Assembly (NCBI GenBank): GCA_039802265.1
Contig: JBDRWI010000015.1
Coordinates: 1-40,322 of the forward strand
Direction: 5' to 3'
Origin: a candidate division WOR-3 bacterium
GTDB lineage: Bacteria; Hydrothermota; Tepidihabitantia; SM23-42; JAOAFX01
DNA: 40,322 bases
The first letter of the stretch is position 1; each line of letters opens with the position of its first letter. The translations under genes were made by a program, and so were the position numbers. The notes under the pieces are model-generated. The model was not told the DNA's origin, did no database searches, and saw only the letters and a list, made by a program, of their open reading frames with translations. This document shows, one piece after another, positions 13,435-38,764 of this stretch.

Positions 13435-13489
13435 CAATATTATACTTTATTAAAAGATATTGTGTCAAACTTGTCAGCGGGAGGTTACA

Positions 13490-14347
13490 ATGAACTGTAC
13501 AAAGGTGCTATTGCTAATCGTAACTGCGGGTGCATTAATAACTCGTTGTGCCCAAAATGAAAAGGCAGAGGTTGAGGAATTTCTTGATAGATGCTGGTTT
13601 ATCGGCGGTGAGGCCCGTACTTCTGATGACAGCACGACAACACCCCAGGGTTCAATTGGTGGTCCAGGTCTTGCACTGGACACCTTTCCCTTCTATGTGA
13701 AATGGGTCCGGCGTATTGAACGACCTGATACGACCAGGCATTATGAAATTGATGTTATAGGAGATAGCGCATTTGTTACAATGACAGCATACTTTAAGGG
13801 AACACCACCGGAGTATGGTATCTTTGTTGTCAGCGATTCTCCGGTTGGCTCGGGATTGGTAATGGTGCGTGAAATCACCGATAGTGTTGTGCGAAAGATA
13901 AAGTGCTACCGTAATGATACAGGCTGGCACCTGGTAAGTATGACGGTTGCTGATATTTACACTGTGGGCACAGAACATCCGGTCACAATTACAAGAATAG
14001 AAGTGCGAGTTGGAGGTATTCTTGTCTTCACGGTTAATGACCCCAACACTTATTTCACAAAAGAACAATTGCCAGCATTCAAACCAAATGATACAGTGGA
14101 GGTAACCGTCTATTGCCAGGCTGAAGGTGATTCAACCTGGGCATTTTTGCATCACGGTGCAGAGCATAGACCAGGTGTAGGATTAAAGAGACACTGGCGT
14201 CAGCCATTCTATCGTGATAATACCACAACATTCAAGCGAACGTGGATAATCGCGGACGACTCAGTCCTCGTAACACCTGCAGTAAGGTATAGTGCAATTG
14301 ATGTCCTCGGTCACATTTTTTACTCTGCGTCAAAAATGTTGACTTAA
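13490..14347 (+). CDS. Hypothetical lipoprotein, possibly truncated at the C-terminus
   Basis: ATG 13490 with GGGAGG RBS; MNCTKVLLLIVTAGALITRC lipobox-like signal; last codons lie in a palindrome. Confidence 0.65.
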   Translation: MNCTKVLLLIVTAGALITRCAQNEKAEVEEFLDRCWFIGGEARTSDDSTTTPQGSIGGPGLALDTFPFYVKWVRRIERPDTTRHYEIDVIGDSAFVTMTAYFKGTPPEYGIFVVSDSPVGSGLVMVREITDSVVRKIKCYRNDTGWHLVSMTVADIYTVGTEHPVTITRIEVRVGGILVFTVNDPNTYFTKEQLPAFKPNDTVEVTVYCQAEGDSTWAFLHHGAEHRPGVGLKRHWRQPFYRDNTTTFKRTWIIADDSVLVTPAVRYSAIDVLGHIFYSASKMLT

Positions 14348-14713: not shown

Positions 14714-15106
14714 ATGATGAACTTGCCATTTGGCGAAATTAAGAATAATCTGTTAATAATGAAATTCTCAACCGCGGATTATTCTATTGCTTCGGTATTA
14801 GCAGCAATAAAACTCCATCTTGATGTGATTGAGGAGATGGGTGCGATATTTTTGGGTGCCCAGACCGAGGTTGTTGCTGGACCCACACCGGTCTTCCAGC
14901 CGGTTCCGGTTGTTGCCCAGTTTGAATATACCGGCAAGGGCGATGCCAAGGCGACGCTTGAGAAGGTTTATAAACTTGTCTGGCAGGGAATTGTCAATTC
15001 ATTCCCTGATGAAACCTGCTGGTCTCAGGCAAAACAGGCATACTCTGATTTCATATCGGCACAGGCAGACTTATTAAGGGCAAGGATTGAGGCAAGTAAA
15101 GAGTAA
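14714..15106 (+). CDS. Hypothetical 130-aa cytoplasmic protein
   Basis: Strong RBS AGGAGG (start 14714 or 14717); no recognisable motif. Confidence 0.75.
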   Translation: MMNLPFGEIKNNLLIMKFSTADYSIASVLAAIKLHLDVIEEMGAIFLGAQTEVVAGPTPVFQPVPVVAQFEYTGKGDAKATLEKVYKLVWQGIVNSFPDETCWSQAKQAYSDFISAQADLLRARIEASKE

Positions 15107-15152
15107 ATGCCTAAAAGTCCAAAATACCTAAATACCTAAATGCCTAAATGCC
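15104..15152. repeat. Degenerate 8-bp tandem repeat (TAAATGCC/TAAATACC)n
   Basis: taaatgcc taaaagtc caaaatacc taaatacc taaatgcc taaatgcc. Confidence 0.8.
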
Positions 15153-15179: not shown

Positions 15180-16688
15180 ATGATAATTCTTTTTTGTCTT
15201 TTTTCTCTTACTGCTGACCTGCGCTGGGTTGAGGTTGATGTCTCATTATGGCAGGATGGAAGGGCGGATTTTGTCTATAAAGTCCGCTGGAATGTCATTT
15301 CCGGCTCAATGAGTGCATTCTATCTTATGGGCCTTTCAGTTGAACCATTCTTTGACTATGAAAATTCTTACGCCCTTGATGAATATAATAATAAATATCC
15401 AATAGACATCAAAGACCTGGGCGGTGGTAAATATGATATTGTGCTCGGTAAGGGGAAGAGATACGGACCCGGTCAGATTACCTTTATAATCCATTTTGGT
15501 GGTGATTTAGGTAGGAGTAGAAATCTTGCTGTAACACAGAGTGAATTTGGTGAACTTGTAGTATTCCACTGGGCGCCACCCCAGTGGGATGAACCGCTGG
15601 AACATTATACTGTAAATGTGTATTATCCCATAGAAACAATGAGCAAACAGGTGAACCCGGATGACTATGGCTTTCGCACGGAAAAATTTATGAACGAAAG
15701 ATATCTTCTGGACTACTTTGGGCAGGAATTTAAGGGAAAGTACTATTTTGCAGTTCGGATTCACAAGAATGATATATCGACAATGGAGAAAATGGAGATC
15801 CAGCAGTATATTCCAGCTAATTATTTTAACGCCGAAAAGTTTGGCCGGATTGAAATCAAACCCGAGCGTAGACGAAAATTTTTTATCCCTTATGACTTGC
15901 TATACATGTTATTTTCCATAATTCCATACCTATTCTATTCCAATCGCAAGGCACAAAAAATAAAAGGACTGTACAGTGAGGTACAGAGCCTGAATTGGCT
16001 TAGAAATGACTGGGTCCCACCAAAGATTGAGGTTGCAACATTCAGGAAGTCCGGCAAGGTTGCAAAACTTGACCTGATTGAGGCTGCAATATTCCTTGAC
16101 TATCCGGTTAATAAGGTCTTTACAATAATTGCTGAAAAATTGCAGAAGGATGGAATTTTGAGTATCTTGAATTACAATCCAATCAAACTCTCGGTTTTGC
16201 AAAGACCATCGGGTTTGAAATACTACGAGGCAATGTTTCTTGATGCAATAAAGAGTGATGGCACAATGGATGAGGCAGGATTAAAATCGCTTGTGATGCA
16301 GGTTGTTGAGAATATCCAGACAAAGGCCTGGGATTGTGACCTAAAGGCAACCAAGGCATATTATACCGAAAAGATCGGCTCCCCTGATGTGGAAGAACCG
16401 ATTGATGAAACTTACAGTGATATGTCTTATTATTATTATCTGCGCAACCAGCAGTTTGGCCGCAGTGGTTATTATCAACAGCTGGAGGATGGATTTGTCA
16501 TATATGGTGAACCAATAAAAGATTATTCAACTTTTATCCGTTCTGACGCCTGCCACAGTGCCTGTTATGTCCATACCGCCTGTCATGATGCCTGCCATTC
16601 GGCCTGCCACAGTGCCTGCCATTCGGCCTGCCATAGCGCCTGCCACAGTGCCTGCCATTCGGCGTGTGTGAGTGGAGGGGCGCGGTGA
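15180..16688 (+). CDS. Single-pass membrane protein (DUF2207-like N-terminal domain) with a C-terminal (CHSA)n Cys/His repeat tail; candidate radical SAM substrate
   Basis: Short hydrophobic N-terminus, beta-rich domain, one TM helix (FFIPYDLLYMLFSIIPYLFYS), helical domain, then CHSACYVHTACHDA(CHSA)6CVSGGAR. Confidence 0.8.
   Translation: MIILFCLFSLTADLRWVEVDVSLWQDGRADFVYKVRWNVISGSMSAFYLMGLSVEPFFDYENSYALDEYNNKYPIDIKDLGGGKYDIVLGKGKRYGPGQITFIIHFGGDLGRSRNLAVTQSEFGELVVFHWAPPQWDEPLEHYTVNVYYPIETMSKQVNPDDYGFRTEKFMNERYLLDYFGQEFKGKYYFAVRIHKNDISTMEKMEIQQYIPANYFNAEKFGRIEIKPERRRKFFIPYDLLYMLFSIIPYLFYSNRKAQKIKGLYSEVQSLNWLRNDWVPPKIEVATFRKSGKVAKLDLIEAAIFLDYPVNKVFTIIAEKLQKDGILSILNYNPIKLSVLQRPSGLKYYEAMFLDAIKSDGTMDEAGLKSLVMQVVENIQTKAWDCDLKATKAYYTEKIGSPDVEEPIDETYSDMSYYYYLRNQQFGRSGYYQQLEDGFVIYGEPIKDYSTFIRSDACHSACYVHTACHDACHSACHSACHSACHSACHSACHSACVSGGAR
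16548..16668 (+). repeat. 12-bp coding tandem repeat encoding (A)CHS units
   Basis: gcc tgc cay (tcg/agt/agc) units with synonymous variation. Confidence 0.95.
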
Positions 16689-18085
16689 TAATCAAATACC
16701 TAAAATCTAAAATGCCTGAATGCCTGAATGAGAAAATTAAGCTCCAAAATCAAAATTTAAAATGTCAAACAAATTCCAAATTCCAAATATCAGACGGAAA
16801 AGAAGAGATAAATTTAGAATGGGTGGACGGGTTTGTAAGAGAAATCAAACCATATATATATGTAAGAGATATGGATAATCTTTTAATTTTAATACCCAAT
16901 CAAGTACATAGATTGAATCAATCAGGTGTTACAATTCTAAATTATCTTCTCAAGGGCAACTCAGTCACCAAACTTCTTGGATTGGTAGGAGATAATGAAA
17001 CGAAAAGAAAAGAGTTGCATTACTTTTTCTGCGATTTGCGGGCGATTGTTAGTGGATGTCTCAGGGAAGGTGAAAAGAGAGAGGCAATATCCTATTATGA
17101 ATTTAATGGTGATCTGAATAATTATCCAGTCCTTTCAGAAATTGCCGTTACCTATCGTTGCAATCTTGATTGTGAGTTCTGTTATGTTGGTCATAGGGAT
17201 TACCCTGAACTTGGTACTTCTGATTTGAAAAAGATTATCTTTAAGATATATAATGAAGCGAAAATCCCATCAGTCAGTTTTACCGGCGGCGAGCCTCTAA
17301 TGAGAAATGATATTGTAGCACTTGTTGAATATGCCCGCAAGATTGGCTTATGGACAAATTTAATAACCAACGGCACCTTGCTTGACAGCAAACTTGCAAA
17401 ATCCCTGAAACAGGCAGGCTTGAATAGTGCCCAGGTAAGTTTAGAAGGTCCTGATGCCAAAATACACGATAGAATCACTGGAATTCCCGGTTCTTTTGAT
17501 AATACAATTGCCGGGATAAAATACCTCCTGGAACAGGGTCTATCTGTCCACACAAACACTACTGTCTCAAGACATAACATAGATTATCTTCCAGAAATAT
17601 TAAAGTTGATAAAATCGCTGGGATTGAGAAGGTTATCAATGAATTTAATGATTCCCTGTGGAAGTGCCGAGAAGAGAAGGGATTTATGGGTCTCATATTC
17701 AGAAATCGGTCAACATATATTAAAAATCAAATACCTTGCGCAAAGGGAAAATATCCAATTCTTATGGTATTCCCCGGTGCCGATGTGCGAATTCAATCCC
17801 ATAGCCTATGGTTTTGGCAATAAATCCTGCGCTGCAATTACCGGGCTTCTGAGCATTGACCCGCTGGGTAATGTCCTGCCCTGTTCTTCCTGGAGAGAAC
17901 CGGTTGGCTCGTTATTAAGAAATAGTTTCAAAAAGATATGGCATTCTCCGATGCTGAGTTATTTTAAGAATGCTGATTATGCACCGGCAGAATGCCATCA
18001 ATGTACTGAATTTAAGATATGCAAAGGTGCCTGTCCATTATTCTGGAAGGTATTCTCTCCGGGGCGAGGCAGGGAGATTGATTGA
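16685..18085 (+). CDS. Radical SAM/SPASM-domain enzyme with an N-terminal PqqD/RRE-like domain (PqqE/peptide maturase-like)
   Basis: CNLDCEFC (17159-17182), SFTGGEPL, ITNG, VSLEG; SPASM C-x17-C...CxxCx5Cx3C; RRE-like HRLNQSGVTILNYLLKGNSVTKLL; GTG 16685 overlaps the upstream TGA, with GGAGG 6 nt upstream. Confidence 0.9.
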   Translation: MIIKYLKSKMPECLNEKIKLQNQNLKCQTNSKFQISDGKEEINLEWVDGFVREIKPYIYVRDMDNLLILIPNQVHRLNQSGVTILNYLLKGNSVTKLLGLVGDNETKRKELHYFFCDLRAIVSGCLREGEKREAISYYEFNGDLNNYPVLSEIAVTYRCNLDCEFCYVGHRDYPELGTSDLKKIIFKIYNEAKIPSVSFTGGEPLMRNDIVALVEYARKIGLWTNLITNGTLLDSKLAKSLKQAGLNSAQVSLEGPDAKIHDRITGIPGSFDNTIAGIKYLLEQGLSVHTNTTVSRHNIDYLPEILKLIKSLGLRRLSMNLMIPCGSAEKRRDLWVSYSEIGQHILKIKYLAQRENIQFLWYSPVPMCEFNPIAYGFGNKSCAAITGLLSIDPLGNVLPCSSWREPVGSLLRNSFKKIWHSPMLSYFKNADYAPAECHQCTEFKICKGACPLFWKVFSPGRGREID

Positions 18086-18086
18086 G

Positions 18087-18998
18087 ATGGACTCTTATTC
18101 CATTCTTGGTAAAATCTCCCCAAAATTGAGAAATTTTGTTACTGTCATTTTATTTTTTACCGGTTTTGCCCTGCAATTGAGTTCAAGGAATATCCTCCCT
18201 GGATTACCCTTTATTGCTTCCTGTGTTTTACTGAACTGGATTAAAGGTTTTTCGATAAAACCAATCCGCCCCCAAAAATTGGAATGGACAGAAGTAACAC
18301 CGGAAAAGATTGCCATGGTTGGCAGGCATTGTGAGGGTTTAAAGAGAATCCCTAAAAATCTGGGATGTGCCGCATTTATAATCATCACTTTTTTCGTAAT
18401 ATTCGGCATAGGCTTTATTTGGGAGTTATTATCAAATCTAAGTAAATATCAATTTTCGGTCTTTGTCTTAATTATTGATTCTATAATTATCTTTTCCGGC
18501 GTAATGTTGAGTGGCGGCCGTGACATCTGGATTCCCAATAATCTGGATGTTAAAATTCCGATTATTGAAAGAATATTAAATCACCCTCTACTTAAAAAAG
18601 ACCCCAGTCTGCAGATAATACCTTACCTTGAAATCGGCAAGACAAAGGATGGCACATTTCCCAATGATACAAGGATACTGATTAAATTTAAGGATGCACC
18701 AGAGGATTTTATCGGTGTGCAATTTCAGATTTCAATAAATGATGTTCAGGGCAAAAAATATCCTTATTGCTACTGTGTTATCATTGCCCGGAAAACCTTC
18801 GGGTTATTTGCGAAATTTGTTCCTGTAGAATTAGAAAGAATAACCATTGAAACTGAAAGAAGCAGTGATACAGATGTGATTATAATTCGCCAGACCACAA
18901 CAAAAAATACTGGTTATTACACAGACACCCAGGTCCAAGATTATATCCTGAAAAACAGCATCAATATTACAAAAAGTATTCTTTCTAATCCAGCATAA
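18087..18998 (+). CDS. Hypothetical integral membrane protein (about 4 TM helices plus soluble C-terminal domain)
   Basis: ATG 18087 is 1 nt after the rSAM stop, with GGGAG upstream; four hydrophobic segments (ORF track starts at 17970). Confidence 0.75.
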   Translation: MDSYSILGKISPKLRNFVTVILFFTGFALQLSSRNILPGLPFIASCVLLNWIKGFSIKPIRPQKLEWTEVTPEKIAMVGRHCEGLKRIPKNLGCAAFIIITFFVIFGIGFIWELLSNLSKYQFSVFVLIIDSIIIFSGVMLSGGRDIWIPNNLDVKIPIIERILNHPLLKKDPSLQIIPYLEIGKTKDGTFPNDTRILIKFKDAPEDFIGVQFQISINDVQGKKYPYCYCVIIARKTFGLFAKFVPVELERITIETERSSDTDVIIIRQTTTKNTGYYTDTQVQDYILKNSINITKSILSNPA

Positions 18999-19050: not shown

Positions 19051-19240
19051 TGAGATGGGGTTATTTGTTTTAAAACATAGCCGCAAGTATTAGTTTGCGG
19101 ATAAAAAGACTTATGGTAGCGCGAAAAAAGAAAAAATAATTTTAATGGGGTAAGGCTTAATAGCCTCTGATTAAATCAAGGGTATGCAGTTTGCACTACT
19201 TATGGTGCATAAAAAATGCTATGAAATTTAATAAGATTAT

Positions 19241-19374
19241 CCCCTCCCTTGACGGGAGAGGATTAAGAGCCTGCCCTGAATCCTGACCCGTCTTCAGGAC
19301 AGGTTTATTTCAGGGTGAGGGTGATAAAATTGGTTACCCCTCACCTTTGCCCTCTCCCACAGAGGGGGAGAGGG
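19241..19374. repeat. Paired CCCTCTCCC...GGGAGAGGG REP-like elements with a nested 47-bp palindromic insert
   Basis: Compared with the uninterrupted copy at 36733-36768; insert 19268-19314. Confidence 0.8.
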
Positions 19375-19398
19375 ATTTGATATATCTGAGGAGGTAAC

Positions 19399-34357: not shown

Positions 34358-35221
34358 TTATTTCTTCCCATAAACAAACAAATACCAGCCGAATCTCTTT
34401 GCCAGTAATCTTTCAAACCAGAAAGGTGCTAATTTTGTATATTTTCTTAATGGCAGATGTGCAACCCTAAACTTAAGGTCCCCAAATTGATCAAAAAGTT
34501 TTTTCACATCATCTTTAGTATATGCTCTGGCAATGGGACACTCTACACCATCGGTAGCATGATTTAAAAATTCTGATGGTCTAAAATAATTTTTACCGAT
34601 TTTGATAAAATTTTGGTAATGTTCTTCAAGCCACCTCTTTTTTAATTTCTTAGTTAAAATGGGTCTAAATATAATATAGATTAAAACAATCATTCGTAAT
34701 ACAATCATAATCCTGAAATAGTAGTTAAGGCTATTTTTATGATAAAGCATAATAATTATCTCACCGTCTGGTTTTAATACACGATAAATTTCGTTGATAG
34801 CCTTTTTAATATCAGGGGTATGATGCAAAACACCATGGGCATATACCATATCAAAACTTTTATCGGCAAAATCCATTTCTTCTACGTTCTCAATCTTAAA
34901 TTCTCCATTTAGATTGAAGAGTTGAAAATGGTTTTTAGTTGCATTAACAGCGGACTCTGTTAAATCAATGCCGGTATAGATTGCCCCATTCTCTGCAAAA
35001 CGCCTGCCATCCGCCCCCATACCACAACCAACTTCAAGAACTTTTTTCTCTTTATATCTATCGAAAGAAACAAATTCATTTAAATGCCATTCGGTTGTAT
35101 ACCTGAATCTTGAATATTCTTCAAAAAATTCTCTTGTGCCGAAACGATTTTTAATAAATTGTTTACCGCAGATATTTTGATTCCAGAAGGATTTGACTTC
35201 TTTTATTTCAAGGTTTTGCAT
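34358..35221 (-). CDS. Class I SAM-dependent methyltransferase
   Basis: VLEVGCGMG, FDMVYAHGVLHH, RVLKPDG. Confidence 0.88.
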   Translation of the reverse strand: MQNLEIKEVKSFWNQNICGKQFIKNRFGTREFFEEYSRFRYTTEWHLNEFVSFDRYKEKKVLEVGCGMGADGRRFAENGAIYTGIDLTESAVNATKNHFQLFNLNGEFKIENVEEMDFADKSFDMVYAHGVLHHTPDIKKAINEIYRVLKPDGEIIIMLYHKNSLNYYFRIMIVLRMIVLIYIIFRPILTKKLKKRWLEEHYQNFIKIGKNYFRPSEFLNHATDGVECPIARAYTKDDVKKLFDQFGDLKFRVAHLPLRKYTKLAPFWFERLLAKRFGWYLFVYGKK

Positions 35222-36035
35222 GTTTTTTAATCAGGGAACTAATTATTTCTTTCGCATTCTCACTGAAGGTCTTCGCAAATGCATAGTTTTCAATAAGACC
35301 TTCTAAATCATATCTTATGCTCGCTTTATCAATCGTGCTGACAATTTCCATCAGTTTTGGATATAATTCTGATTTATCTCTGATTCCTTCAATACAATCT
35401 ATATTCGGCTCAACCCCTTGCTCAAGATACCACATCAAATCATAGTAATCCCTGCCTTTAACCGCTGCCAATATCTTCCCTGTTTTATTGGTTCTTTCCC
35501 ATTTCCTGTATAGAATTGCACGAATCTTTGTTGCCATCAAGGTTGGCAAATCAAAACTCTTTACTAATATGGACTCGCCAAATTTAAAAATAGGTTTTAT
35601 CTCAATACGGTATCTTTTGCAGAAGTCAAAAGTTGTATAGACTTCTATTTTTAAAAATAGAAAATTTGATTCAGATGTTTTTGCAAGATTCAGCAAATGG
35701 AGTATAGGGAATTTCAATACGCACCTGAATTTCTGAATTTTAAAAGTTGCCATAAGATTGTGCTTTTTTGCGAAAAAACTTATGAGGTCACTTGATAGTT
35801 TTCCAAGATTAATTTTTTTTCCAATATCTACGAAATCAAGGTCCTCTGATAAACGGGGCAATCCGTAGCAATGTCTTAAGGAAGAACCGCCGTAGAAAAT
35901 TAAATTGTTGTATTCATTATGAGAATAGATAAAAGAAAGAGTAAGAACTTGAAGATACTCTTTCACAACATTCCTCTTAAACACTACCGGAGAGTCTTCC
36001 TTTTCTGCTAATATTGTTCTGATATATTCGTGCAT
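35208..36035 (-). CDS. abiEii: AbiEii-family nucleotidyltransferase (type IV TA toxin)
   Basis: FYGGSSLRHCYGLPRLSEDLDF, ATKIRA, KGRDYYDL. Confidence 0.88.
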   Translation of the reverse strand: MHEYIRTILAEKEDSPVVFKRNVVKEYLQVLTLSFIYSHNEYNNLIFYGGSSLRHCYGLPRLSEDLDFVDIGKKINLGKLSSDLISFFAKKHNLMATFKIQKFRCVLKFPILHLLNLAKTSESNFLFLKIEVYTTFDFCKRYRIEIKPIFKFGESILVKSFDLPTLMATKIRAILYRKWERTNKTGKILAAVKGRDYYDLMWYLEQGVEPNIDCIEGIRDKSELYPKLMEIVSTIDKASIRYDLEGLIENYAFAKTFSENAKEIISSLIKKHAKP

Positions 36036-36038
36036 TTA

Positions 36039-36683
36039 TCAAAAGAGGTAGGAAAATATTTCCTGCATTCTCTTTGAGCCGTCCATCTCAATGTAGTTTT
36101 CTAAATTTCTTATCTCACCTTTGCTAAAAACATCAAGATTCAATCGTAGTTCCATAGCCATTTTTCTATTTAGAATCATTTTCTTTCTTAAATATAAGAA
36201 ATCAAAAAGGGCTTTTGCTTTCTCGGCCTTGAAGTAAAAATATCCATTTGATTTCTCTACCCTATAACCACAAAAAAGGTTATCTTTTATCTTGTGATAA
36301 ATAAAAACACCAATATTATTACGGACCGTGTAAGTCTTGTTTCTGGTCATCAGAGTAAAATTCACCGGGACATCAGTTAAAATATTGTTTTCGTATAACA
36401 CATACTCTAAACTTAAATAGGAAGGGGGATAGAGTTTTGTTGAGATAAACTCTATCAAGGATGTAAAAGTGCCATTGGTTTTAGCTTTTTCAACAAACTT
36501 TGTTGATATGTAAAATCCTCTTTTGAGACGAATAACCTTGTTCCTGCCTTCTAATCGCGAAAGAGCAATCCTAAGGTGGTGTGCAGGCACATCAAGAATT
36601 TTCAGGTTATCAAAAGTGAAATAGGGAAGTTTTTCTATATAAGAAAGAATCCGCTCATTAAGAGAAGTATCTTTGTTTCTCAT
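36039..36683 (-). CDS. AbiEi-like antitoxin / wHTH regulator
   Basis: IRLKRGFY, PSYLSLEYVL, AEKAKALFDFLY; directly upstream of abiEii; start ATG 36683 (ORF track TTG 36692). Confidence 0.8.
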   Translation of the reverse strand: MRNKDTSLNERILSYIEKLPYFTFDNLKILDVPAHHLRIALSRLEGRNKVIRLKRGFYISTKFVEKAKTNGTFTSLIEFISTKLYPPSYLSLEYVLYENNILTDVPVNFTLMTRNKTYTVRNNIGVFIYHKIKDNLFCGYRVEKSNGYFYFKAEKAKALFDFLYLRKKMILNRKMAMELRLNLDVFSKGEIRNLENYIEMDGSKRMQEIFSYLF

Positions 36684-36694
36684 AATATACAATT

Positions 36695-38326: not shown

Positions 38327-38731
38327 TCATTTTTGATGAACGGTTTTGGTGCTACGCACGGTTTTTAGCCAACGGATTGACTTTTTTAAGCGTGACAACA
38401 GAATACGGACCTTGATGATACGGTTCAAATAATGCTTGTAGGTTTTATCGTCAATATAATTGTTATTTTTAGCCTCTATCAAATGGTTTTCTGTTTCATC
38501 ATTCGATGTTATTGCCATTTCATAGTAATGATGTTTCTCTTTCAAAGACGACTTCCGAAATCCTTCGGCTATTTGAGATGGCACTGCACGAGATGAGCGA
38601 ATAATTTGGTCGCCAAGTCTATATTTTTCTTCCTTTGGGAATAATGGAACCAATTTGATAGCAATTTCCTTTGCAAGTTCACTTGCAACCCGCCAAACAA
38701 CCAAATCTCTAAATGTATTTATTTTTGCCAT
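38327..38731 (-). CDS. Four-helix-bundle protein (23S rRNA intervening-sequence protein family)
   Basis: FRDLVVW, FPKEEKYRLGDQIIRSSRAVPSQIAEGF; likely start ATG 38731. Confidence 0.88.
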   Translation of the reverse strand: MAKINTFRDLVVWRVASELAKEIAIKLVPLFPKEEKYRLGDQIIRSSRAVPSQIAEGFRKSSLKEKHHYYEMAITSNDETENHLIEAKNNNYIDDKTYKHYLNRIIKVRILLSRLKKSIRWLKTVRSTKTVHQK

Positions 38732-38764
38732 ATTATTTAGCCGTTGAAGACTCAATACCGTTTA

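Follow-up and report, generated by a model that had tools for sequence, protein, structure and literature searches.

Conserved His-x-Ala-Cys repeats at the end of a membrane protein encoded beside a radical SAM enzyme in a candidate division WOR-3 bacterium

What is the function of a membrane protein tail that consists of little else than repeated His, Cys and small residues, and why does its gene run directly into that of a radical S-adenosylmethionine (SAM) enzyme? The question is raised by a stretch of 40,322 nucleotides (assembly GCA_039802265.1, contig JBDRWI010000015.1, positions 1 to 40,322 of the forward strand), which was analysed as a whole and is called the window here. The tail is encoded by 141 bases (16548-16688; 46 codons and TGA) that form the 3' end of the open reading frame (ORF) 15180-16688. 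In the best explanation overall, the tail would be the substrate core of the adjacent RRE/radical SAM/SPASM enzyme, would stay on the membrane protein after modification, and would have its last residue bound by the exported domain, or head, of that same protein. Taken as one proposal this falls somewhat short of even confidence, and its parts differ in strength: the conservation, the gene linkage, the anatomy of the enzyme and the covariation are observed, and the substrate relation, the chemistry, the physical contact, the passage through the membrane and the function are deduced.

Conservation and grammar of the tail

The composition given in the initial annotation, with 10 Cys and 9 His in the 45 residues from the first Cys and a GGAR end, was confirmed, as was the use of Ser codons from disjoint boxes (AGT, TCG and AGC all occur in the tail). 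The window was compared with 19 related loci, the own-genome or apparently duplicate loci L008, L012, L013 and L014 having been set aside. Across these 20 genomes 45 of the 46 tail residues are invariant and the last alone varies (Arg in 9, His in 11), so that 20 distinct tail DNAs encode just two protein versions. Of 874 codon pairs between the window and the 19 loci, 11 differ in the encoded residue and 401 only silently. The ratio of amino-acid-changing to silent differences (pN/pS) is 0.009 in the tail, against 0.18 in the N-domain, 0.21 in the cytoplasmic domain and 0.35 in the linker, which makes the tail the most conserved segment of the protein. The other forward frames contain stops in 17 and 19 of the 20 genomes and the reverse frames in 15, 20 and 2, and amino-acid identity in the five alternative frames is just 51-77%. 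The low pN/pS and the drifting codons bear out the earlier view that the repeat is maintained at the level of the protein. The closest named relative is a WOR-3 protein (86%).

At the level of DNA a 12/24/36-bp repeat is still detected in the tail by TRF. Among the 7 HSAC units of the window just 5 differ in DNA, and unit identity is only slightly higher within a gene (0.77) than between different units of different genomes (0.74). The periodicity and the limited divergence of the HSAC units indicate that duplication built the array, which was then kept by selection on the peptide. That the tail is a neutral microsatellite or an annotation artefact, as might be read from the periodicity, is extremely improbable. 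Relatives that lack the tail or read it in other frames had been named as the sign of such a repeat; the conservation data show the opposite, and the neutral repeat was rejected on the pN/pS and the broken or drifting alternative frames. Furthermore, a tail-first scan of metagenomes gave at least 120 stretches, of which 117 were in frame by filter, 116 of these ending no more than 15 residues from a stop; the remaining 3 were likewise C-terminal. The independent assemblies X1 and X2 span the tail region in pieces, which argues against an artefact. No match was obtained when viral contigs were scanned with the tail pattern.

The grammar of the repeat was derived from 128 distinct tails containing 1023 His and 1052 Cys (each tail's last Cys included). 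His is followed by x-Ala-Cys in 994 of the 1023 cases, with Ala at +2 in 997 and Cys at +3 in 1008, and x is mostly Ser (708) or Asp (203), then Asn (31) and others that are rarer. A Cys stands four residues after a Cys in 828 of the 1052 positions; the spacing is broken by insertions (V, VC, YV, AC), which sit between Cys and His and not inside the H-x-A-C unit. The repeat described initially as CHSA is therefore real, and its unit is better written H-x-A-C. A tail holds 2 to 11 units, mostly 7-11, and upstream units sometimes carry Tyr or Phe instead of His and Gly instead of Ala (YDAC, YSAC, FSGC). GG occurs in 71 of the 128 distinct ends and GGAR in 14, whereas VSSF and VSKF ends are common. 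The suggestion that GGAR is a processing site did not survive: besides the low frequency of GG, the cognate peptidase that double-glycine or ubiquitin-like processing calls for was not seen in the cassette, and the pattern of the last residue is that of a binding determinant (see below).

Membrane proteins with (CA)n-GGGR tails, which the initial annotation mentioned for other lineages, do exist. Full-length homology joins them to the H-x-A-C (HxAC) proteins (hhalign probability 100, E 2e-44), and their genes too are followed by one for a related radical SAM enzyme. This CA family far exceeds the HxAC family in size, with at least 6357 clusters at 90%, and all 120 listed members have a near-identical, almost invariant tail of 19 residues. 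Its enzyme is orthologous and its core repeat has no His. The clearest trait common to both families is a small residue right before Cys, found at 94.6% of 1606 Cys in HxAC tails and at 166 of 166 in CA tails; Ala or Gly at +3 is also frequent (85% in both). As the His-free sister shares the small residue before Cys, a chemistry of Cys is favoured over one of His. Against this stands Val, not a small residue, before 48 of 341 non-His Cys.

The adjacent enzyme and its candidate chemistry

The proposed link between the tail and the enzyme was supported by gene overlap, co-occurrence and metagenome loci. The inferred start of the enzyme is a GTG that overlaps the TGA of the tail gene (an alternative ATG lies at 16712). 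The substrate profile finds matches in 26 of 201 genomes of the phylum, namely 17 HxAC, 8 (CA)n-GGGR and 1 plain DUF2207 protein without Cys, and the 25 Cys-tailed genomes are exactly the 25 with the enzyme (E<=1e-50). The cognate enzyme was present in 53 of the 58 listed metagenome loci with at least 1.5 kb downstream, a third gene stands beside the enzyme in 48 of 48 checkable metagenome loci, and the enzyme tree is congruent with that of the substrate body (r 0.905, 62 pairs). A search with the substrate profile gave 1080 clusters at 50% identity (E<=0.001), distant kin included. Several points weigh against a strict link. In 5 of the 58 loci no enzyme was nearby. In genome G187 (L178) ~560 kb separate the enzyme gene from the tail gene, and within a single open frame unrelated sequence takes the place of the enzyme's N-terminal part, an arrangement that reflects either rearrangement or mis-assembly. 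The agreement of the trees is partly due to shared ancestry, and kinship overstates both it and the co-occurrence.

The enzyme matches PF04055 (97 bits) and PF13186, the SPASM domain (37.5 bits), both over cut-off, and its CX3CX2C and GGE motifs are invariant in 69 of 69 sequences. In the model three strands followed by three helices (residues 20-85) make up an RRE-type part without Pfam match. The nearest folds are SuiB, SkfB, anSME and CteB, SuiB being matched over the full length. The anatomy is that of a radical SAM/SPASM enzyme acting on peptides that are made ribosomally and modified after translation (RiPPs), and none of the catalogued families tested includes the system. Seven Cys of the SPASM region are invariant in 68 of 69 sequences (C330, C344, C362, C399, C402, C408 and C412; numbering from 16799). 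AuxII lacks its customary last Cys, with a Cys at +10 to +14 after C412 in only 2 of 71 enzymes; 59 of 71 have a Glu at +11 or +12, where the copy in the window has diverged. In CA-family enzymes a Cys is found at +11 to +13 in 6 of 7 complete copies. We infer for AuxII either a change of ligand from Cys to Glu or an open site. The six catalytic-proximity residues are Y, T, I, S, S, S, where StsB has Y, T, I, S, K, L and CteB has F, F, T, S, H, Q (PMC10288494, Precord et al.). Four of the six equal those of the sactisynthase StsB and one equals that of CteB.

In the cytoplasm the enzyme would abstract hydrogen next to each Cys and so close one short ring from Cys-S to carbon per H-x-A-C unit. 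Thioether chemistry of one kind or another, by analogy with characterized maturases, is given a slightly better than even chance. The first of the three options in the initial annotation envisaged Cys thioethers, and this part is retained as the likeliest chemistry; the strict i,i+4 ladder that came with it was rejected on the spacing data given above. Of the ring types, a bond from S to the C-alpha of the preceding small residue, giving a thiomorpholinone as in enteropeptin, is a tentative candidate. A four-residue ring from S to the His at i-3, of the kind made by NxxcB or GggB, is hardly less tentative, and other spacings appear unlikely. Some observations count against thioethers. C330 is an extra invariant Cys (68 of 69) before the SPASM hairpin, and together with C344, C362 and C412 it may complete AuxI in the manner of SuiB and anSME, neither of which forms thioethers; this is mildly adverse. 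The sactisynthase SkfB carries the same extra Cys, yet has an open AuxI site (PMC6231123), so that C330 weakens thioethers and does not exclude them. The enzyme also lies far below every family cut-off among the NCBIfam matches listed (101 bits against 625 for the StsB model, 84 against 340 for PapB, 82 against 268 for HxsC). Moreover, Y-T-I-S is possibly common among PqqE-like enzymes.

Three other chemistries were weighed against thioether rings. The enzyme might join His-C2 to the C-beta of Ala in three-residue cyclophanes of the triceptide type, as HaaB does on HAA, and leave the Cys free, for instance to bind metal. The fit to the aromatic-X-X pattern noted initially holds, since Ala with its C-beta at X3 follows His at +2 almost throughout, and the Tyr and Phe of upstream units would be tolerated by triceptide synthases (PMC11499958). 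Cys at +3 is kept even better than this Ala, F-x-G-C units have no C-beta at X3, and the pattern cannot apply to the sister family, where an orthologous enzyme faces a core repeat without His; cyclophanes are thus considered improbable. About equally improbable is an unmodified tail that serves as a polynuclear metal or Fe-S ligand, the enzyme acting on another part or molecule or only loading or sensing the cluster. The near-total invariance of the 10 Cys and 9 His, the helix drawn by AF2 and a fourth AuxII site possibly left for a tail ligand would suit it, while the RRE and peptide-maturase anatomy of the enzyme and the variable number of units speak against it. The particular form in which Cys and His share one helix face was rejected, as on an ideal alpha-helix both are dispersed round the axis (resultants 0.27 and 0.22). 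Metal binding after modification would be compatible with thioether rings as well.

Still a little less probable is that the enzyme epimerises or otherwise edits the backbone at C-alpha, with C330 as hydrogen donor, to give a tail of mixed D and L residues that could span the membrane or be threaded through it. Peptides with alternating D and L residues that form pores exist, and the strictly alternating (CA)n sister tail recalls them. The proximity residues resemble those of a C-alpha-abstracting enzyme and C330 is nearly invariant, but it appears to occupy the AuxI-ligand position of SuiB and anSME (PMC6231123), and epimerisation would not need the Cys of the tail to be conserved.

Among known systems, the proposed thioether formation on a retained tail works most like CrpA/CrpC and the short-ring thioether maturases. 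CrpC of Methanococcus voltae cross-links the 29-kDa Cys-repeat protein CrpA (PMC13692751). As here, an RRE/radical SAM/SPASM enzyme (TIGR04463) is encoded next to a large protein that has Cys repeats at its C-terminus, and the product is a protein and not a short peptide (PMC13692751). In CrpA, however, the repeat has 17 residues with C-X-X-Q/D, whereas here it is the 4-residue H-x-A-C on a single-pass membrane protein; CrpC has three AuxI and four AuxII Cys, whereas here C330 is extra and the last AuxII Cys is absent. The window's enzyme does not belong to TIGR04463 (64.3 bits, cut-off 525). CHSAC, CHDAC and DUF2207 are absent from the text of the CrpA supplement that was searched; its Supplemental Data set 1 may list relatives. 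The short-ring maturases KgrC, NxxcB, GggB, QmpB and StsB join Cys-S to the preceding residue or form un-nested four-residue rings (PMC12395415, PMC13361665, PMC9389541, PMC10288494). In enteropeptin, made by KgrC, S is linked to the preceding residue in a thiomorpholine (PMC12395415); NxxcB links Cys to an upstream Asn and GggB makes four-residue rings. These enzymes act on small secreted precursors, unlike the ~10 units at the end of a membrane protein found here. Similarly, sactipeptides and ranthipeptides derive from short leader-core precursors that are cleaved and exported, whereas this repeat ends a membrane protein of at least 500 residues.

The triceptide synthases HaaB and HtkB (PMC11499958) and the His-Xaa-Ser system (HxsC, TIGR03977) share with the locus a repeated His-x-small motif beside a SPASM enzyme, but here an invariant Cys follows each motif and the sister family is free of His. 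The CXXX-repeat system (target TIGR04117, maturase TIGR04119) likewise has a Cys at every fourth residue and an adjoining radical SAM gene. TIGR04117 is a model of 98 positions that relatives of the tail protein match with only 13-19 bits against a cut-off of 50 and the window protein not at all, and no match to TIGR04119 (cut-off 150) was found at the locus. A paper on the tail system, on DUF2207 with a radical SAM enzyme or with a Gly-rich C-terminus, or on the CXXX-repeat system was not found in the literature searched, from which subscription journals were mostly absent. Few whole proteins have been shown to be cross-linked by radical SAM enzymes, QHNDH, MCR and the ribosome being named beside CrpA (PMC13692751). 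No radical SAM target made up of ten His-Ala-Cys repeats on the tail of a membrane protein was met in the literature searched. The system may offer new enzyme chemistry.

The carrier protein and the last residue of the tail

The 502-residue protein that carries the tail has itself no match in Pfam or NCBIfam. Matches of its relatives to PF09972, PF20990 and TIGR04222 are mostly below cut-off, 2 of 9 HxAC relatives passing PF09972 only, and the Atlas neighbours are DUF2207 proteins; by sequence the carrier is a distant relative of DUF2207 and not a member. Some relatives carry the label PF27846. The AF2 model has a mean pLDDT of 84, with blocks of 94-98 for residues 11-220. This beta-sandwich (against 6s7o_E: Z 15.2, root-mean-square deviation (rmsd) 2.8, 176 residues aligned) is modelled with a fold like that of ribophorin I's luminal domain and of the N-terminal domain of M1 aminopeptidases. 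The match of the cytoplasmic domain to 3kn1_A is weak (Z 5.9, rmsd 4.2, 131 aligned). A positive n-region with an h-region is present in 58 of 69 full-length HxAC and 109 of 114 CA relatives, and Lys and Arg are richer after the transmembrane helix than before it in 68 of 101 HxAC and 98 of 110 CA relatives. A second transmembrane helix was rejected, the best later segment being far less favourable on a hydrophobicity scale. The signal peptide, the single helix and the Lys/Arg bias together place the head outside and the tail inside, so that the predicted topology is an exported head and a cytoplasmic tail.

In this light the behaviour of the last residue was unexpected. Covariation was examined in alignment A5, which leaves out the clade of SSF/SKF-ended proteins and a few sequences that are either fragmentary or very long (these are counted in the tally of hydrophobic ends below); 7 of 101 rows with shorter ends were left out of the pair ranking. 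The mutual-information partners of the last residue (positions 48, 46, 65, 86, 92, 89 and 45) all lie in the head. Among 71,968 pairs, 48-502, 46-502 and 65-502 rank 11, 16 and 18. With terminal Arg, the G-F-Y/H at 46-48 is lost in 30 of 30 proteins; with terminal His it is kept in 60 of 63. Residue 86 is acidic in 88 of 92 proteins that end in His or Arg and basic in none of these. Of 9 proteins with a terminal Asp or Glu, 8 have Lys, Arg or His at this position, which covers 4 of 5 origins of the acidic end; in proteins with hydrophobic or other ends it is acidic in 3 of 37. The CA family has terminal Arg in 115 of 115 proteins and a Glu aligned with residue 86 in 103 of 115. Such a repeated reversal of charge is hard to explain without contact. 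In the AF2 model the tail is a low-confidence helix, mostly with pLDDT below 50; a pLDDT of 92 at residues 501-502 and some beta-sandwich structural alignments that extend to residue 502 suggest docking on the head. It is quite probable, on this pattern of covariation, that the last tail residue binds a pocket on its own exported domain formed by Asp86, strand 45-48 and residues 65 and 89.

Nevertheless, there are reservations with respect to this contact. The pair 86-502 ranks only 136 of 71,968, and P0004 has an acidic end and keeps Asp86. The tests on independent pairs were not significant, with 4 of 5 pairs in the same and 0 in the opposite direction for strand 46-48 (p 0.125) and 3 of 4 and 0 for residue 86 (p 0.25), and the columns were picked after the scan. 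Docking was judged by pLDDT, a single strand call and the ranges of the structural alignments. A complex prediction of the N-domain (13-222) with the tail (468-502) scored 0.29 and 0.18 against a mark of 0.32, with controls that were not folded, and weighs neither for nor against the contact.

With head and tail on opposite sides of the membrane, the two can meet only if the tail is threaded through the bilayer, laid open by damage, or freed and then exported. As judged from the sequences, the tail probably passes through the membrane to latch onto the head of its own protein, its last residue docking in the pocket once the matured tail is across. It would most likely serve as a latch or a sensor that closes either on threading, in which the protein of the third gene would assist, or on a breach of the membrane. 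The specific form of a trans-bilayer latch, a poly-thioether tail that runs through the membrane and is caught by the pocket of the outer domain, is possible but rather unlikely. The unmodified tail is too polar for self-insertion, which counts against crossing. The third route corresponds to a different arrangement, in which the modified tail would be cleaved from its protein and exported, to be sensed by that protein's outer domain, as a fused precursor and receptor of peptide signalling. This would solve the problem of topology and turn the covariation into receptor-ligand specificity. Nonetheless it is judged doubtful, less so than the metal or cyclophane tails: no conserved protease or transporter was seen in the cassette loci inspected, no conserved cleavage motif precedes the tail, and the third gene differs between clades.

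The head-tail covariation would be the first concrete handle on the purpose of the tail, and it also bears on the unexplained low-complexity tails of DUF2207-like proteins. A cytoplasmic end that seems matched to an exported domain is surprising for membrane biology. If true, the trans-bilayer latch would be a widespread, undescribed envelope device, new in kind, and the (CA)n-GGGR family, and perhaps the Gly-rich tails of DUF2207 proteins, would share the same head-tail logic.

Related proteins and other features of the window

The features of the cassette are collected in Table 1.

Table 1. Position of the tail, its carrier and the adjacent genes in the window
Feature	Position	Strand	Basis or remark
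Type I membrane protein carrying the tail, 502 aa, distantly related to DUF2207	15180..16688	+	ORF, profile matches of relatives
Short signal peptide, ~residues 1-12 (inferred)	15180..15215	+	Hydrophobic N-terminus
Exported beta-sandwich domain, residues 13-222	15216..15845	+	AF2 model, structure comparison
Strand residues 45-48, co-varying with last tail residue	15312..15323	+	Covariation
Asp86, putative charge-swap partner of C-terminal residue	15435..15437	+	Covariation
Single transmembrane helix, ~residues 234-253 (predicted)	15879..15938	+	AF2 model, hydrophobicity, K/R after helix
Cytoplasmic alpha/beta domain, weak GOLPH3/GPP34 likeness	16065..16376	+	Structure comparison
H-x-A-C tail: one leading Cys, (H-x-A-C)9, end VSGGAR and stop	16548..16688	+	Core finding
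Radical SAM enzyme: N-terminal RRE-type domain, CX3CX2C, SPASM	16685..18085	+	Profiles, model
Third gene, 303 aa, hydrophobic N-terminal half and conserved soluble domain	18087..18998	+	No family

The third protein has ~4 transmembrane segments by inspection, 2 of which pass the threshold. N218, P226, Y227, Y229, R268, G276 and T279 of its soluble domain are invariant in 53 of 53 rows and, judged by sequence, resemble a binding or catalytic site. In 32 of the 48 checkable loci the third gene encodes a membrane protein like that of the window and in 16 a coiled-coil-like protein of ~400 residues. The latter type belongs to the SSF/SKF-ended clade (L036, L041, L051, L092, L111 and 11 more); it has a short hydrophobic segment and only sub-threshold Pfam matches, and in L092 the enzyme gene comes first, then the coiled-coil gene and then that of the tail protein. 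A promoter scan performed no better than shuffled sequence (20 vs 16.1).

DUF2207/TIGR04222 proteins resemble the carrier in their exported beta-sandwich, transmembrane helix, GOLPH3-like cytoplasmic domain and low-complexity tail with a defined last residue. They differ, in the example of L034, by extra transmembrane segments, a Gly/Ser tail without Cys and the absence of the cognate enzyme from the genome. Hybrid tails join the HxAC, CA and Gly-rich DUF2207 types: in L130 HxAC repeats are followed by a DUF2207-like GGGGSSGSW end, and in P0092, P0093 and P0182, proteins named Promethearchaeota, by (CA)n-GGGW. The CA loci comprise L026-L033, L156-L163 and P0215-P0334. In 7 of these that were checked neither type of third gene was present, and in 4 of the 7 an acyl-CoA-thioesterase-like gene follows the enzyme. 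Also by sequence reading, LemA-like and HtpX-like genes follow the cassette in L006:10287-11799, and a LemA-like gene precedes the plain DUF2207 gene in L034:417-2670.

In the window the tail gene is flanked by short tandem repeats of 8 bp and 25 bp (15104-15152 and 16690-16800), the second of which forms a variable N-terminal extension of the enzyme. The element at 15104-15140 is a dispersed repeat, because contigs join it to several other sequences. Several GC-rich hairpins with high contig depth lie 3' of the cassette (19081-19395) and suggest another dispersed repeat or a terminator cluster. Directly upstream of the tail gene and on the same strand lies an ORF of 130 residues without Pfam or NCBIfam match (14714-15106). 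At 13460-14347 lies a lipoprotein-like ORF, which is shorter than its relatives in L002, L004 and L010, diverges from them after ~residue 283 and is possibly frameshifted or truncated. Finally, an AbiEii/AbiEi type IV toxin-antitoxin pair and a gene of the '23S rRNA IVP' family (35208-36692 and 38327-38755) are located inside a polysaccharide synthesis cluster.

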